NCBI GenBank assembly: GCA_964016885.1
Contig: OZ024741.1
Coordinates: 184,512,001 to 184,576,000, forward strand
Reading direction: 5' to 3'
Length of the DNA stretch: 64,000 nucleotides
Origin: Eledone cirrhosa
Taxonomy: Eukaryota
Positions within the stretch are counted from its first letter, which is position 1, and every line of letters begins with the position of its first letter. Made by a program: the position numbers and the translations under genes. Below are positions 7,122-56,526 of this stretch, piece by piece. Under the pieces are notes generated by a model. The model saw only the letters and a program-made list of their open reading frames with translations. It was not told the origin of the DNA and ran no database searches.

Positions 7122-7269
7122 ATGCTTTGGGAGGGTCATGTTGCCAATAAGAAACACACGCACCAGTTGCTTCCACTCCAATTTATTATAAATTAAATTC
7201 ATAAATTTAAGAATTTATAAATTTCCGGTTGGTTGGTTGGTTCCATAACCGGACGGTTGTTCATATATT

Positions 7270-7312
7270 GTCAAAGTTCTTTCGTCACATATTCTGTGAC
7301 ATCTTCAGTGAC
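7270..7312 (-). ncRNA. Minimal type I hammerhead in PLE pLTR
   Basis: Reverse complement reads GTCA CTGAAGA T GTCACA-gaata-TGTGAC GAAAG-aa-CT T TGAC. Confidence 0.72.
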
Positions 7313-8172
7313 TGGGGATTCTTTTCTTTGTTTTTGTGGTTCTCCATTGTTCTGTCCTACGCCATCTTGTTTTTGTGTGTGTTTGCGTATGTGTTACATC
7401 CGGGTGTCTGTGTGTGTTTATATTTGTTTATTTATTTGTTTATTTACATGTTACTGGTTGGTTGTTTGTTCTATGTGTTTGTGTGTTTTCATTTTGTCCT
7501 TAATTGTAAGTTGTGATGTTGCTATTCCATTCATGTTTTCTATTTATTTTTGGTTGGAGTTCATTTATGTTTATTGCCTCTGTGATTTGTCTAAACTTTG
7601 CGTCTTCTCTGTGTGTAGATTCTATTTTTATTTCTATGTTCTCTAATTTGCCCTTATGTTCTATTTTAGCATGTTGGTGGAGTATTGATGATTCTTTTTT
7701 ATCTTGAAGTTCTCGCCAGTGTTCATTTAACCGTTCTCCTATACTACGAGCTGTCTCTTATATATTCTTATCTTTACTATATTCTTATTCTTATCTTTAC
7801 ATTGCCCTTCAGTACATCTTATGCTATATACTACATTTCTAGTTTTACAGTTAATATGGGGCGCTTAGTTTACAGATTATGCATTTCTTATCTATACCGG
7901 GAGGTGTTTGAAAAGGGTATGTATTGCTAATACGTGTTTTTATGGAGGTACCTGGTCTTTCTACTATCTTAATATTAAGTTTATGTTTATCTAAGGCCCT
8001 TCTAAATTTGTAAGCTAATTCATCTTTAGTGGTTGTATTGAGGAATATTACACTCTGGTATTTATTGCTATCATGCCATGAGTTTATTCTATTAACCTTA
8101 TTCTAGTTCTTTTTATTCTATTCCAAAATTTTCTCCTATACAAGAGGCAGGTCCCATTTGTATCATTATTTA

Positions 8173-9486
8173 TCATTTTTCCCATTTGGTTCTGGCTCCT
8201 CTATATACTCTGATTTTATCTCTCTGATTGTAACCAGAGAACTGCATACGGTGGATGAAGTGTTGTATGTGCCTCTCTAGTTCTTTGGTGTTGCACATGA
8301 GGGACACGTTTCTCATCACCCGTACCAAATCCGCAATCAGTATGTTGATTTTTGTGTGATCCGAAACAGCTGAGTTTCGGTGGATCAGATATTTGGAAGT
8401 CATGGGTTTGGCATAATGGGAATGGAGGATTTGTTTTTTGTTATTAATAGTTTCTAACCAGAGCTCTGTGTCTAGTACAGGTAATCGATGGTTGGGGTGT
8501 TTGCTTGGGTAGTCTATAGTAACTCTAATACTCTGGTGGATGGAGTTAGCTATTTGTTGTATGCTTTCCGTGGTGTTTTTCTCTAATTCCTGACTGTTCT
8601 CTAGTGGGGGTGTTTTTACTACGATGTTTATATCATCAACGTAGCTGGAGTGCATTATCAGGGTTAAGAAGTTGCTGTCTTCTAATTGTTCTTTAAGTTT
8701 AAGTTTATTGTCCCACCATACCATGAATAGGTTAGCTATGTCACCTGCAATGCTAACACCAATGGCAGCTCCCTCCTCTTGGGCATATGTTTTTCCCTTA
8801 AATTTGAACATATGTTCCTTAAGGATTAATTTTATACTGGCCCCCACCACATGTGCAATCATTTTCTTTAGTTCATCTTGGTTTTTGGGGGTCCGTATGG
8901 CTCTGGTCCACCCGTTCCATCTATCTGTGTGGGTTTTCTTGGCCATTAAGGTAATGGTAGGTGGTCTGCCTCTTGCTGGTCATGTAGGGCACAGGTTGCT
9001 AAGGTCATATGTATCTAGATAATCATTACTATAGGTAAGTTTAAGTAGAAATCTCAGCTAACTGGTATCAATCCCACGGAATTCAACATTGCTCTCAATG
9101 ATCATTTATACGCATTTCTCCACTGCAAAATCTACATCAATGGATGGATACAGGGACACAACATCCATACTACCTATTATACATTTTGTTAGGTCCCTAG
9201 ATCGGTTACTTTCGCCGATTCTGCTGAGGAGGTCCTCCGTGCTGTCACATATATCTGGGGACATTTCAATGATGGGGCGTATGATCAGGGAGAGAAAGTA
9301 GGAAAGTCTGTAGTTACTAGCAATGTTAGCTCCACAGACTGGCCGTGTTGGTGGTCCTGTGACAGGGTGACTGCTCGTTTTATGGTCTTTACGAAGCCCA
9401 TACAACGCTGCCACTTCATTGTTCCAGGCCTGGAAGATGTTTGCAGTCCTTTTATTGGGCTGCATTATGTTTGTCCACATCATCAT
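8173..9486 (-). pseudogene. PLE reverse transcriptase (disrupted ORF)
   Basis: Motifs LYGLRKDHK, PTRPVC, SMDVVSLYPSI (ORF 9106-9486), then YAQEEGAAIG...IANLFM, SYVDDI, LPVLDTEL and HYAKPM (ORF 8173-8946). These are typical PLE RT and thumb motifs, split by stops or frameshifts. Confidence 0.9.
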
Positions 9487-9597
9487 ATGGGCATCGAGGG
9501 TTTTCTCCCTATCCTCATGCTATTGTGGTGTTATTTCTCTTGTGTTAGTGATGTGGGGTTGCATTGCCTGGATGTAGTTTATTAACTGTAAAAAACT

Positions 9598-9840: not shown

Positions 9841-10107
9841 TAAATGAACGCCAACCAAAATTAAATAGAAAACAGGAATGGAATAACAACATCACAACTT
9901 ACAGTTAAGGGCAAACTGAAAACACACACACACATAGAACAAACGACCAACCAGTAACATGTAAATAAACAAATAAATAAGCAAATATAAACACACACAG
10001 ACACCCGGATGTAACACATGGGCAAACCAAGCACACAACACACACAAAAACAAGAAGGCGTAGGACAGAACAAAGGAGAGGCACAAAAACAAAGAAAAGA
10101 ATCCCCA

Positions 10108-10150
10108 GTCACTGAAGAAGTCACAGAATGTGTGACGAAAGAACTTTGAC
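10108..10150 (+). ncRNA. Minimal type I hammerhead in inverted PLE pLTR
   Basis: GTCA CTGAAGA A GTCACA-gaatg-TGTGAC GAAAG-aa-CT T TGAC. Confidence 0.72.
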
Positions 10151-10356
10151 AATATATGAACAACCGGTTACGGAACCAACCAACCAACCGGAAATTTATA
10201 AATTCTTAAATTTATAAATTTAATTCAGAATAAACTGGAGTGAAAGCTACTGGTGCGTGTGTTTCTTATTGGCAACATGACCCTCCCAAAGCATAACAAT
10301 ATCGGTTTCAACACACGTTTTCAGATAAAGAATCTTGCTAAATAAATTCAGAAACG

Positions 10357-12739: not shown

Positions 12740-12795
12740 ACTGCTATATATATTTCGATGATAGCCATTGAATGGCTATGACCTCATCAGGCAGT
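12740..12795 (-). ncRNA. Type I hammerhead ribozyme motif
   Basis: Reverse complement reads ACTGC CTGATGA GGTc-ATAGCCAT-tca-ATGGCTAT-cATC GAA ATATATAT A GCAGT: 5 bp stem I, long stem II, palindromic stem III, AUA site. It lies in a roughly 350 bp unit (12693-13048) flanked by (TA)n. Confidence 0.8.
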
Positions 12796-13714: not shown

Positions 13715-14059
13715 TAGAAGCACTCAACGAAAAATAATTTTCTGGAGTTATTAATATTAAAATATAAGTATTAATAAAATAGATGTCCTTTTGATCAATT
13801 ACATTTTATTATACATATTTCGGATGTACAACAGTACGTGCTCATCAGAGAAAATATAATGATACATGACATTGAGATGTTAAATGGTTAAGATTTAATC
13901 AAGGTAGTGATTAAATCTTAACCATTTAACATCTCAGGATATGTCATGTATCATTATATTTTGTCTGATGAGGACGTACTGTTGTACATCCGAAATATGT
14001 ATAATAAAATGTAATTGATCAAAAGGACATCTATTTTATTAATACTTATATTTTAATAT
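13715..14059. mobile_element. Fold-back element with one hammerhead per arm (family A, copy 1)
   Basis: Palindrome 13754-14059 centred at 13901-13908. Plus arm CTGATGA GGACGTAC-tgtt-GTACATCC GAAA tatGTA (13965-14001); mirror copy at 13811-13847. Confidence 0.8.
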
Positions 14060-14268: not shown

Positions 14269-14344
14269 TATATACATATATATATGTGTGTGTGTGTGTA
14301 TGTATATATATATATATATGTGTGTGTGTATTTATATATATATA

Positions 14345-15648
14345 TATATATAAACGTTTGTATATGTATAATAAAGCCAAAACAATGCAGGTATGGACAT
14401 AGAATAAAGAATGCAAATGCAAAAGATATTGTTGACAATTAGTCTTTTACCTTAGATTTATTTAAATGTCCTTAATTTTCGAGATAATATCTCTGCTTCG
14501 GAGGGAAGTAAAGCGGTTAAACCAGTGTTCTAAATAGCTTGCCAACCATGCTGACAGGAAATGGTATAGAGTATCTGTTCTATCTCTAATGTCAAAGAGT
14601 TAAGGTTAGGTGGATAAAGAGTAGCCTCCCTTTAAAAAGTTTTTTTTTTTTGTACATGCCTGTTTAAGTGTGTGGGAGAATGCATGAAGGTGTAAGTATG
14701 TGAGTGTGTGTGTGTGAGAGTGAGAAGATATGTCTATACGTAAATGTGGGGGATAGATGCTATCTCGTGTTAGAACTAGTCTTTGTGTGTGTATGTGTGT
14801 GTGAGACAGAATAAGTGGAGGTGTAAGCGTGTGTGTGTGTGCGTGCTTGTGCGTGTGCGTGTGCGTGTGTGTGTGGGGTGGGGGGTATAAATATGGGGCT
14901 AGAAGCTCTATCCAGTTATAAATTGGGTGTTGAGTTGTAGTCTATTATTGATTGGTGGTTGTGTTTTGTCTATTATTAGTGCCTCCTTAATTCTAAGATT
15001 GCCGAGGTTTCTTTCCTTAGTTTCTATCCTAACTGTTATGGTTTTGTCGGTGTTTTTGCATTTAACTAGGTGTTTCTTAAATGAGGAAGCGTTAGTATTG
15101 AGGTGTTCTCTTATTCTTATGTGGAGTGGTCTGGTGGTGCTACCTACGTAGAAGTTGCTGCATTTGTCGCACTCTAGTCTGTATACGACGTAAGCCTGGT
15201 GGCATAGGTCTGTGTCGTTGATGGGGCAGTTGGCTAGCCTGCAGCAGTTGTCATGTCTGGTGGAGTGTCTTTTGGTTAGCTGTCCGCGTAGAGAAGGACC
15301 TGAGTGGGCCAGTTGGATATCTAGTCCCTCTCGTCTGATAGCTCTGCGGATGGCTGTTGTTGTTTCGTCACTGAAGTGTGGGAGCTTCAGGAAGCAAGTG
15401 TTAGTGCCTCGTGTGTGGTGTCCTCTGTTCTTTCTGGCACGGTTTGTGATGGATGTTGTGTATCCATTGAGTTTGAGTACTTCCAGGAAATGTGTGGTGT
15501 GTGTGTCTCGGTCTCTAGCGTCGGTGCATTTGTTCCGGATACGTGTTAGTTCGTTCCTTATGTATCCGAACTTGGCACCGAGTGGGAGGGCTGATCTGAA
15601 ATGTACGAACAGGTCCCTGCTGGCGGCTTTTTTATAGAAGCAGGTGTG
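14345..15648 (-). mobile_element. Second PLE family, 3' fragment (RT thumb, GIY-YIG, 3' UTR)
   Basis: Open frame 14908-15648 and downstream UTR, bounded by (TA)n on both sides. Confidence 0.85.
14908..15648 (-). pseudogene. PLE RT thumb, linker and GIY-YIG endonuclease (5'-truncated, frame open)
   Basis: [19 protein letters not shown]...[45 protein letters not shown]...[19 protein letters not shown]. The N-terminus of the listed ORF is only (TA)n. Confidence 0.9.
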
Positions 15649-15672
15649 GATATATATATATATGTATGTATG

Positions 15673-15806
<134 letters not shown>

Positions 15807-15829
15807 CAAACATTATATATATATATATA

Positions 15830-16052
15830 TTAGAGCAAACATCACGGGCGCTCTATCTCAAAATTATTTTTGAAAAGCATTAGAAATGCGCAACCGGTAA
15901 AACTTAATACCAAAACTGAATACTAGCCAATACTATTACTAATTTTTACTTATTCCTAATTAAACTATTTTTCACAGGGAACAATTTGTCAGCATTTTCT
16001 TTTCCTTTTATCAATATATCATAACTCGTGTGTTACACCTCTATTCTTTTAA
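15830..16052 (-). mobile_element. Terminal fragment of the element at 59408-60455
   Basis: Reverse complement of 59408-59631 (ttagagcaaacatcacgggcgctctatctc...actcgtgtgttacacctcta). Confidence 0.85.
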
Positions 16053-32727: not shown

Positions 32728-33127
32728 TCGAAGCACTCGACGACAGATTTTCTGGAGTATAATATCAATGATATTGATAAATGGGAACTATATTTATAAA
32801 ACCATATTTATTCTATTATATATATATTTCAAGGGTACCAAAACTTTGGTACGCACTCATCAGATAAAATACAAAGCGTGTTTTATAAATTTTGACATAT
32901 CCAGGAATGAGACCTTAACGGTTCAAGTTTTACCTGGATAGGTAAAACTTTAACCATATCCAGGTTAAACTTGAACCGTTAAGATCTCATTCCTGGATAT
33001 ATCAATATTTATAAAACAAACTTTGTATTTTATCTGATGAACGCGTACCAAAGTTTTAGTACCCTTGAAATCTATATAATAGAATAAATATGGTTTTATA
33101 AATATAGTTTCCATTTATTAATATCAT

Positions 33128-34314: not shown

Positions 34315-34957
34315 ATAGACATCCATGTACATAATATGAAAAAGTACTGGTGGAATGTTCCAGTAAAAACCCCAATAAAATGCAGGCATAACGGACCAGA
34401 TAATATGATATGGGACAGGGAGAAGAAAACATGTACAGTAGTGGAAATTAGCTGCCCAGCAGATGCCAATATAATATCAAAGATTAGTGAAAAGGAGAAT
34501 ATTTATGCAGAACTGATGAGAAATCTGCAGATACTCCACCCTGATTACACCTTCAGATTTATGTCTGTGATTATTGGGGCACTGGGCTATGTTAGTAACT
34601 GCCTCAATACAAATCTTGAGAAGCTAGGCTTCACAGGAACAGAAAGAACACAACTAGTTAGGAAATTACAAGTACAATCCATTAATGGAACAGTAAAATA
34701 TGTAAAACATTCCAAAAATGTTGCATCTAATAACTGCATATACACATGTACAGATACAAAGCATATACACATGCACACATACAACTCTAAACATACACAT
34801 CCACACTTACAATAACATCCATATCTACACATGCATGCATACATATCTACCTAGTTGATGTTGTGTAAATTCCAATGAGAGTGTCTTGTGTCTATGTTAG
34901 AAACCGACTCCCTCTCTATTGGTAAAACTTTGTGAAATTATAAAACCAGAAGAAAAT
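34315..34957 (+). mobile_element. R4/Dong-type LINE 3' fragment (restriction-like endonuclease and UTR)
   Basis: YWWNVPVKT...PDNMIWDREKKTCTVVEISCPAD...KENIY...VIIGALG (PD-(D/E)xK type); preceded by (CATA)n; same family as 46308-48995. Confidence 0.88.
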
Positions 34958-53779: not shown

Positions 53780-53935
53780 ATAACATCCGTACCTGCACAC
53801 ACATGCATGCAGACATGTATACATATCTACTTAGTTGATATTGTGTAAATTCCAATGAGAGTCTTGTGTTTATGTTAGAAACAGACTCTCTCTATTGGCA
53901 AAGATTTGTGAAATTATAAAACCAGAGGAACATAC
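53780..53935 (+). mobile_element. R4-type LINE 3' UTR fragment (inverted partner at 55403-55485)
   Basis: Matches 34813-34950 and 42385-42535. Confidence 0.8.
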
Positions 53936-54367
53936 GCACATAGATACTTACATACATACATACATACATACATAAATGTATATACGTACACAAACACACA
54001 CATTTATAAATATATATATATATATATATCGTTTCTGAATTTGTTTAGCAAGATTATCTGAGAACGTGTGTTGAAACCGATATTGTTATATATATATATA
54101 TATATATATATACGGAAAAATGAAACGAAATTTCATTTCCCACTCTTAGTACGGCTGTTACTTAAATATAAGTATGTACACGTACATACATATATGTATA
54201 CAGACGTACAGTAGTATGTATATATATACATGCACACATATATATATGTACGTATGGATTCACCGAACATTTATTATAATGCTCGGTGTGTTTGTAAACA
54301 AACATCCCGTATTAAGCCGTAGTGTCTAGCAACCATCGTTGCTCGTTTGTTCAACACTGACAAAGGA

Positions 54368-54413
54368 ACGCTGTACTAGTTTCAAACTTATTAGCTATTG
54401 TCGTCAGCAACGT
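54368..54413 (-). ncRNA. Type I hammerhead (retrozyme unit, minus copy)
   Basis: Reverse complement reads ACGTTG CTGACGA caatagctaataagttt GAA ACTAGT A CAGCGT. Confidence 0.72.
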
Positions 54414-54985
54414 ATACCTTCCTGCCAGATTGTTGAACGTATATACTTACCTTATGCATATTAACGGCTGAGTAGCCCAATTTGCATATCGAGTGGGTTA
54501 ATCGGCCGGGTGCACCGAAAACGATAAACGGAAAAAAGAAATGAAATTTTATTTCCCACTCTTAGTGCGGCTGTTACTTAAATATAAGTATGTACACGTA
54601 CATACATATATGTATACAGACGTACAGTAGTATGTATATATATATATACATACATGCACATATATATATATGTACGTATGGATTCACCGAACATTTATTA
54701 TAATGCTCGGTGTGTTTGTAAACAAATATCCTGTATTAAGCCGGAGTGTCTAGCAACCATATACATACTACTGTACGTCTGTATACATATATGTATGTAG
54801 GTGTAAATACTTATATTTAAGTAACAACCGTACTAAGTGTGGGAAATGAAATTTCGTTTCATTTTTTCCGTTTATCGTTTTCGGTGCACCCGGCCAATTA
54901 ACCCCCTCGATATGCAAATTGGGCTACTCAGCCGTTAATATACATAAGGTAAGTATATACGTTCGACAATCTGGCAGGAAGGTAT

Positions 54986-55028
54986 ACGTTGCTGACGATA
55001 GCTAATAAGCTTGAAACTAGTACAGCGT
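54986..55028 (+). ncRNA. Type I hammerhead (retrozyme unit, plus copy)
   Basis: ACGTTG CTGACGA tAGC-taataa-GCTt GAA ACTAGT A CAGCGT: 6 bp stem I with one G-U, palindromic stem III, GUA site at 55020-55022. Confidence 0.82.
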
Positions 55029-55231
55029 TCCTTTGTCAGTGTTGAACAAACGAGCAACGATGGTTGCTAGACACTACGGCTTAATACGGGGTGTTTGTTT
55101 ACAAACACACCGAGCATTATAATAAATGTTCGGTGAATCCATACGTACATATATATATGTGTGCATGTATGTATATATATATATACATACTACTGTACGT
55201 CTGTATACATATATGTATGTACGTCTACATA

Positions 55232-55316
<85 letters not shown>

Positions 55317-55359
55317 GTGTGTGTGTGCGTATATACATTTATGTATGTATGTATGTATG

Positions 55360-55390
<31 letters not shown>

Positions 55391-55485
55391 GTATCTATGT
55401 GTGTATGTTCCTCTGGTTTTATAATTTCACAAATCTTTGCCAATAGAGAGAGTCTGTTTCTAACATAGACACATAGACACAAGAA

Positions 55486-56526
55486 CTGGTGCGTGTGTTT
55501 CTTATATGGCACCAGTTGCTTTCACTCCAATATATTATAAATTTTAAAAAAAAAAAAATAAAAACTATAAATTTCCGGTTTGTTGGTTGGTTCCACAACC
55601 GGACAGTTGTTCATATATTGTCAAAGTTCTTTCGTCACACATTATGTGACCTTTTCAGTGACTGGGGATTCTTTTCTTTGTTTTGTGCCTCTCCTTTGTT
55701 CTGTCCTACGCCATCTTGTTTTTGTGTGTGTTGTGTGCTTAGTTTGCGCATGTGTTACATCCGGGTGTCAGTGTGTGTTTTTATTTGTTTATTTATTTGT
55801 TTATTTACATGTTACTAGTTGGTTGTTTGTTCTATGTGTGTCTGTTTTCATTTTGTCCTTAATTGTAAGTTGTGATGTTGCTATTCCATTCCTGTTTCCT
55901 ATTTAATTTTGGTTGGAGTTCATTTATGTTTATTGCCTCTGTGATTTGTTTAAACATTGCGTCTTTTCTGTGTGTAGATTTTATTTTTATTTCAAACTTT
56001 CACATTAGGTGAAAAGCTGCGTTTTTTCAGCTTTTTAGAGGTTTTTTGAGGCGTTACATCAGACCGATTTCCTTGAAATTGTAACTATGTATTAGTCAGT
56101 CTCTTCTTCATACCGTGAGCAAAGAAAATCAAACTTTTTTATGTCCTAGGTGAAAAACCTCATTTTGTCAGAGTTTTAGGGTTTTTTTGAAGCGTTACGT
56201 CTAGCCGATTTTTCCGAAATTTCAAGGCATATTATGCACGTAAAAAAAAAATATTTTCTTGATCCCCTAGGTGGAAACCTCCATTTTTCCTGCTTCATCG
56301 AGGAACATTCTAAAGATTATCCAGCCATCGGAGTATTCAGTTTATTTTCTTTACATATTGTCCAGCGATGCAGTTTTTCCACGATTAGGTCTGTTGGCGA
56401 CCCGTGTTCCAAAATACCTTATCTCGTGCAACGCCGCGTACCCCTGTTAGTTTATAATAAATTGGAGTGAAAGCAACTGGTGCGTGTGTTTCTTATTGGC
56501 AACATAACCCTCCCAAAGTATAACTA
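55486..56526 (-). mobile_element. Third copy of the PLE pLTR with short inverted end, interrupted by another element
   Basis: 55510-55992 matches 7160-7635, with the hammerhead core mutated to CTGAAAA at 55620-55662; 56452-56526 is the inverted terminus. Confidence 0.85.
55995..56451 (+). mobile_element. Possible non-autonomous Helitron/Helentron-like insertion
   Basis: Internal diverged repeats (taggtgaaaa...gcgttac..c.agccgattt); ends cgtgcaacgccgcgtacccctgttagt, resembling Helitron-type 3' ends. Confidence 0.35.

Follow-up and report, generated by a model that had tools for sequence, protein, structure and literature searches.

Insertion ends of a hammerhead-bearing repeat in Eledone cirrhosa suggest mobilisation by Penelope-like elements

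Introduction

A stretch of 64,000 bp from the genome of the cephalopod Eledone cirrhosa (GCA_964016885.1, contig OZ024741.1, positions 184,512,001 to 184,576,000; hereafter the window) contains a non-coding tandem repeat with a hammerhead ribozyme motif, arranged as two inverted arms inside a (TA)n tract. The locus raises the question of which machinery inserted a unit that encodes no protein, and from what kind of template. The original prediction had been a non-LTR retrozyme with a unit of 416 bp, copied around a circular RNA and inserted in the manner of Penelope-like elements (PLEs).

Non-LTR retrozymes have been described from coral, Mytilus (350–390 bp) and axolotl (Rtz331/353), and those of invertebrates are reported to cleave well as monomers (PMC7229834). 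The class is recognised by a tandem unit of about 150–450 bp with a GC content below 50%, present as dimers to multimers. The mobiliser of animal retrozymes has hitherto been argued from co-occurrence and homology. A 2020 review (PMC7761336) describes retrozyme repeats as being without a conserved motif indicating a helper, and the retrozymes of Xenopus were interpreted as non-autonomous PLE derivatives based on co-occurrence and pseudo-LTR homology, in a set of 35 species that includes no mollusc (bioRxiv 2026.07.22.740005). For PLEs, a purified protein was found to cut and extend both strands of AT-rich DNA, and two internal RNA start sites for reverse transcription define the PLE tail (PMC11167929). 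This tail is usually found at one end of the insertion, and copies that are inverted and truncated at the 5' end have been reported, as has the targeting of (TA)n (bioRxiv 2021.04.23.441226).

Materials and methods

The searched genome comprised 3.0 Gb. It contains molluscan haemocyanin (39 matches), one functional unit of which scored 650 and 659 bits against chains 1js8_A (octopus) and 4yd9_C (squid) and 460 bits against 8tnv_A (gastropod), in agreement with a cephalopod host. In total, 120 loci were mapped, drawn from the top DNA hits and from those matches that come first on contig C1. Overlapping duplicates were exchanged for larger re-fetched sequences and the duplicate L167 was dropped, while the duplicated L077 insertion was counted twice. 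The insertion at window positions 54108–55238 was named L001, with its minus arm at q789–1441.

Unit positions were numbered from C3 of the CUGACGA core (u1). Ends were assigned to E1 (around u245, accepted between u238 and u252) or to E2 (u304, accepted between u290 and u306), and arms shorter than 40 nt or touching the edge of a locus were excluded from the end counts.

Results

Structure of the locus

The insertion consists of a minus arm and a plus arm, both longer than one unit, which meet 5'-to-5' within (TA)n (Table 1), and the arrangement that had been predicted for this locus was thus borne out. The proposed unit length of 416 bp applies to the minus arm only, whereas one turn of the plus arm measures 422 bp and most units of the family 420–424 bp. 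As one hammerhead is present per strand, release of a monomer from this locus is impossible, and the insertion is likely a dead end.

Table 1. Coordinates of the insertion, its hammerhead motifs and the sister family (window positions unless a locus is given).
Feature	Position	Strand	Remarks
Minus arm	54108..54760	-	1.56 turns, from unit position 69 (5') to E2 (3'), adjoining (TA)n
Plus arm	54759..55238	+	1.15 turns, from unit position 188 (5') to E1 (3'), adjoining (TA)n; E1 boundary blurred as far as 55241 by TA letters
5'-to-5' inversion junction	54759..54760		arms overlap by 2 nt
Tail, E1 to E2	54108..54166	-	59 nt; found at the outer end of the minus arm only
(TA)n target, left	54087..54111		
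(TA)n target, right	55235..55313		
Type I hammerhead, majority family sequence	54986..55028	+	predicted cut after 55022
Stem I	54986-54991/55023-55028	+	
Hammerhead core	54992-54998 and 55013-55016	+	
Stem II	55000-55011	+	
Palindrome ACUAGU	55016-55021	+	
Second hammerhead, damaged	54368..54413	-	predicted cut between 54374 and 54373
Sister 466-bp family	L092:2385-2935 (G000:C1:23440084-23440634) and L222-L251		

A 165-bp inverted duplication brackets the insertion (window 53861–54029 and 55309–55478). It is a copy of another dispersed repeat, which occurs again at 34804, 42377 and 46273, and the two sides of the bracket are more alike than either is to these other copies. Among 130 flank pairs, long matches were found only at this locus and in one duplicated pair, and a flanking inverted duplication is not general in the family. 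When the flanks were checked for target-site duplications, the insertions were found to end in (TA)n, with a direct match (42 bp) in 1/130 pairs.

An assembly error at 54108–55238 would account for the bracketing duplication and for the failure of any contig from four public runs to span the locus; contigs from the same four runs do contain the family. Such an error is extremely improbable, given that similar architecture with different junctions was found at 57 inverted loci among the 120 and that the two arms diverge by 3.6%. The tandem arrangement and inversion, for which assembly error had been named as a possible refutation, are thus upheld.

Hammerhead motif

The hammerhead of the plus arm has the majority sequence of the family (21/44 motifs) and reads ACGUUG CUGACGA U AGCU AAUA AGCU U GAAA CUAG UA/ CAGCGU, where "/" marks the predicted cut. 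In the minus arm, a 3-nt insertion follows CUGACGA and a C>U change affects stem II, a form seen in 1/44 motifs; an intact type I hammerhead, expected in each full unit, is therefore present in the plus copy but not in the minus copy. The expected palindrome ACUAGU was found as well, but the 2-nt loop of stem III is unable to close, and the stem of a monomer is reduced to 1 bp with a palindromic CUAG loop. Stem II comprises 4 bp atop a U.U mismatch, and the motif is hence not stem-less and not of the 'minimal' type that had been proposed. With its 1-bp stem III and the U.U at the base of stem II, the hammerhead is weak on two counts.

The catalytic fold of the monomer was calculated at -3.8 kcal/mol versus -10.6 kcal/mol for the minimum free energy structure (z 0.43), and folding of the hammerhead as a single strand does not yield the catalytic fold. 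A covariance-model scan had been suggested as a check, and the search against Rfam gave no support, with zero hammerhead families at E≤1; miRNA and snoRNA models on TA-rich sequence made up all 55 hits, none of them at the gathering score. The motif is nonetheless not a chance occurrence, since the exact 32-nt core has 12,458 matches in the genome and the reversed control has 0.

In a selected set of 32 distinct motifs, pairing was seen in 95.8% of cells, and one stem I pair was altered on both sides. By locus, this pair is U.G in 69, A-U in 18 and G.U in 11, with the differences lying between subfamilies, and the change represents one or two inherited events. Core changes amounted to 14/1,795 versus 774/27,102 elsewhere, rates that were not used as evidence because most loci had been selected through an exact core match. 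Insertion ends did not pile up at the cut site, with 0/165 5' ends at u28–36 in these core-selected loci.

Copy number, unit and fold of the family

A 26-mer from the downstream part of the unit has 10,393 genome matches. The copies are 96–98% identical and occur on many contigs, typically dispersed over many chromosomes with 0.2–3 turns each, and core-to-core length was 420, 422 or 424 bp in 27 of the 42 units in the fetched loci. The unit is closed, has a GC content of 0.38 and no LTR structure, and its longest stop-free frame is 61 aa, with no RT or GIY-YIG ORF. The original proposal of a tandem family that is dispersed, non-coding and equipped with a type I hammerhead is supported.

As a 422-nt circle, the unit is predicted to fold at -140 kcal/mol, and its antisense at -113. 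Against 40 shuffles the z score of the circle is -8.9, and it is still -5.3 once the TA-rich hairpin is removed. Structure-wide covariation between subfamilies was not significant outside the ribozyme, and predicted pairs are disrupted by subfamily changes only a little less often than by random ones (P 0.06 and 0.15).

Longer arrays were observed at several places. L113 (G000:C28:45630500-45640400) is a satellite-like array of 23+ turns with about 6% divergence between turns and no clear higher-order period, and the unit is clustered over 45 kb at G000:C1:96992940-97038197. Two-unit (~842 bp) higher-order repeats, which point to local amplification after insertion, were seen at L073 and at G000:C1:49584430-49587831.

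Insertion ends

In 166/197 arms the 3' end falls on one of two fixed sites, separated by 59 nt (E1 82, E2 84, other 31), within intervals that together span 32/420 unit positions, and the 5' ends are scattered along the unit. The 'circular permutation' described for the two arms of the window therefore stands as far as the 5' ends are concerned, but the 3' ends do not share in it, and the apparent permutation is the result of two fixed 3' ends and random 5' truncation. The fixed 3' ends are likely the start sites of reverse transcription, and the fixed-end pattern is the 'tail' mark of PLEs.

TA runs adjoin 138/157 E1 or E2 ends versus 17/61 5' ends of single-arm copies, and both the further genomic copies and the (TA)n flanks that had been anticipated were found. 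Neighbouring arms on opposite strands are joined 5'-5' in 50/51 pairs. Among the 57 inverted insertions, 39 combine E1 with E2, none pairs like ends (E1+E1 or E2+E2), and in 18 one of the ends lies elsewhere, so that all 39 with both ends classifiable carry one of each. This one-of-each rule agrees with the PLE-like inversion geometry that had been put forward from the window.

Local amplification, as in the ABAB repeat of L073 and in L110, would be in keeping with a satellite that spread at the DNA level by unequal crossover or rolling-circle DNA and whose hammerhead is vestigial. As an account of the family this is very unlikely, since the copies are dispersed with 0.2–3 turns, their ends are polar (3' fixed, 5' random) and strictly one of each, and the sense strand folds better than the antisense.

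PLEs and related families in the same genome

An intact PLE served as a control. A young autonomous PLE is represented in the window by a truncated copy on the minus strand at 14320–15650, with a GIY-YIG fragment at 14908–15852. The full layout (copies L201–L208) comprises RT, a Zn-finger-like linker and GIY-YIG, and open frames of 905 aa for RT and GIY-YIG were found at L201 and L202. A first look gave 26,369 candidates, and all of the 150 scored matches were at least 95% identical. In 40/41 mapped hammerhead-like motifs the element ends 152–153 or 193–194 nt past the motif, that is, at two sites 40 nt apart, and the remaining one continues into the ORF; inverted loci have one end of each kind in 4/4. 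The control PLE and the unit have no alignable homology, with only CGTTTAT in common, at one end, and this PLE is therefore a candidate helper only.

A sister hammerhead family of 466 bp is very young (647 candidates, 40 of them scored at 99–100%) and carries a homologous tail. Its stems I and II differ yet stay paired, stem II is stronger, and the core and ACUAGU are kept. In 25 loci, 13/16 inverted pairs combine E1' with E2' and 0 have like ends; the other three comprise a slightly short E2', a cut at the locus edge and another end (one each).

Further hammerhead-like repeats were noted. A third relative at L207:5550-5890 is about 66% identical, with a similar layout and a different hammerhead. 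Type I hammerhead-like motifs with an AUAU-type palindromic stem III lie in the window at 13818–13995, 32827–33070 and 12753–12790, two of these three being 5'-5' inverted pairs between (TA)n tracts, and several further families of this kind were present in the fetched loci. Broken RT fragments were seen in the window at 7160–9519 (minus strand) and 10069–10256, with a weak RVT_1 hit and 25% identity to the protein of the control PLE. A CUGAAGA...GAAAG repeat beside them recurs at 55509–55900, and fragments and repeat likely represent a second PLE family.

The end geometry of the unit is the same as that of PLE pseudo-LTRs, and retrozymes have been reported as pseudo-LTR-derived (bioRxiv 2026.07.22.740005), which raises the alternative that the copies are 5'-truncated ends of an autonomous PLE. 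We consider this very unlikely: 112/201 arms continue past E2 into a further unit, and genome-wide there are 2,597 exact junctions from E2 into the next unit, besides 2,478 exact E2-(TA)n junctions. Ten genome matches begin at u305 without the usual upstream bases and none adjoins a PLE ORF; nine of them proved to be inversion junctions (eight recognised with blastn and L219 by eye) and one a mutated tandem. The longest stop-free frame of 61 aa likewise speaks against this alternative. No parent PLE was found upstream of u305, in the flanks or in the PLE family of window 14908–15852. The reading as truncated PLE ends is largely refuted for the young subfamily, and a diverged parent PLE may still exist.

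Circular or multimeric template

The predicted cut site is passed by 73/96 downstream anchors, a set selected by the downstream motif, and 1/23 stops falls there, so the template was not a cleaved linear monomer. Because the copies extend beyond the cut site and then enter a further unit, not an ORF, the template was either a circle or an uncleaved multimer. Arms exceed one turn in 56/123 E1- or E2-ended cases (C1 sets; biased upward by locus choice). More-than-unit length, taken in the original prediction as a sign of reverse transcription around a circle, fits a circle but fits an uncleaved multimer equally, and some of the long arrays grew through local duplication.

Differences at subfamily-diagnostic sites were 2.4% between turns of an arm, 1.8% between arms of an insertion and 33% between loci, and rare alleles were common to 13/273 within-insertion cases versus 163/30,218 between loci (~10x). 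Both arms of one insertion are one haplotype, and the likeness within insertions could in part be due to later gene conversion or subfamily timing. With L113 excluded, 252 variants were single, 38 occurred in all turns and 21 were partly shared, 14 of the latter owing to a single local duplication of two units. In the main family, insertions with several turns mostly consist of one haplotype plus singletons; in L164, two subfamilies are mixed in one arm. The partly shared variants, this mixed arm, the local duplication in L073 and the weak ribozyme all count against a pure circle.

The E2 arm reaches past E1 in 38 of the 39 inverted insertions, and the longer arm ends at E1 in 20 and at E2 in 19 of them. 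A simple fold-back of a single cDNA was ruled out on these grounds, the arms overlapping and either being the longer. The ABAB array of L073 was considered as the product of a dimer circle and rejected, as its first turn is without two of the variants, which indicates local duplication.

Weighing the comparison of turns and arms, we lean towards a monomer circle as the template rather than an uncleaved multimer; the circle predicts the template observations, but so does a homogeneous multimer. An uncleaved array transcript of a PLE parasite, with the hammerhead weak or acting later and no circle required, is possible but rather doubtful. It would suit the poor catalytic fold, the long arrays (23+ units in L113) and the variants that are confined to part of the turns, such as the private variants seen in only some turns of the sister loci L237, L238 and L245, and PLE ribozyme mutants still insert in vitro, where unprocessed RNA is the main substrate (PMC11167929). 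It is less compatible with the young sister loci L235, L236 and L249, which repeat their private variants in every turn of both arms, with the predominance of one haplotype plus singletons in the main family, with the core and palindrome kept between the 422- and 466-bp families, and with the circles demonstrated for the retrozymes of coral, mussel and axolotl (PMC7229834).

Discussion

The ORF-less repeat of about 422 bp is probably a non-LTR retrozyme inserted into (TA)n by the RT-endonuclease of an autonomous PLE, and the positions of its insertion ends are strong genomic support for PLE mobilisation. In the mechanism that we propose, the PLE protein would cut both (TA)n strands, with one target strand priming at E1 and the other at E2, on one RNA or on RNA from one source. 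Each cDNA would extend over a variable length, often more than one turn, and the far cDNA ends would be joined over 0–5 nt of microhomology. The circle itself would arise when transcripts of arrays are cut by dimeric hammerheads and the monomers are ligated by the host. Among frog retrozymes, 8/9 dimers failed to cleave (bioRxiv 2026.07.22.740005), which weighs against the circle.

A wider proposal, to which we would give even chances, is that a cephalopod clade of circular RNAs, made up of the 422-bp and 466-bp families and others, exploits PLE proteins via a conserved two-site tail, and that its insertions expose PLE integration in general, with E1- and E2-primed rolling cDNAs made on one circle and joined head to head. 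If this is true, the insertions would be direct genomic evidence of retrotransposition from circular RNA and would explain both the PLE tail and the inversion.

The element joins the known non-LTR retrozymes, and what it adds is the evidence of the insertion ends and a model of two-strand, two-site priming. The PLE tail mark is carried by the insertion ends themselves in both the 422-bp and the 466-bp family, as it is in the intact PLE used for control, and the one-of-each rule is a sharp prediction for the formation of inverted PLE copies. A 422-nt RNA and a 905-aa protein of one genome make the questions of helper and inversion testable in vitro, and abundant young ribozyme repeats are added to cephalopod genomes. 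Neither a cephalopod retrozyme nor the one-of-each rule was described in the literature covered (titles and abstract openings). Repeat collections may already list the family, either as unclassified or under Penelope.

Comparison with known systems

Every sequence-level feature of non-LTR retrozymes given in PMC7229834 is present in the element. Like those retrozymes, it consists of tandem units of a few hundred bp (GC content 38%) that lack ORFs and LTRs and carry one type I hammerhead each; its predicted RNA is strongly self-paired, and it is present in thousands of copies in a genome that also contains PLEs. Its stem III resembles that of axolotl HHR_Amex1 (1 bp and a palindromic tetraloop) and the U.U at the base of stem II that of HHR_Amex2, but here the weakening features of both are combined in one invertebrate motif. 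The host is a cephalopod, whereas the main text of PMC7229834 contains neither the word cephalopod nor octopus, and the element occurs mostly as dispersed (TA)n copies of 0.2–3 turns, often inverted, with two fixed ends; the matched passages of that paper give no account of such ends. In contrast to the Xenopus case (bioRxiv 10.64898/2026.07.22.740005), the cephalopod evidence comes from the structure of insertion ends, and the one full PLE family compared showed no homology to the unit.

With canonical EN+ PLEs (PAc Poseidon, PMC11167929; Craig et al. 2021) the unit shares a hammerhead upstream of two fixed 3' ends. The 5' truncation, the partial tandem and inverted copies and the AT-rich or TA targets are also alike. 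Unlike these elements, the unit is closed and has no RT or endonuclease, its tail measures 59 nt versus 30–40 nt, and a non-coding TA-rich hairpin lies between ribozyme and ends.

Inversions with a 5'-to-5' joint are also produced by LINE-1 through twin priming, in which two priming events take place on the target strands. The joint is the same in the retrozyme, which differs from LINE-1 in that both of its priming sites are fixed, its arms overlap (38/39) and poly(A) is absent.
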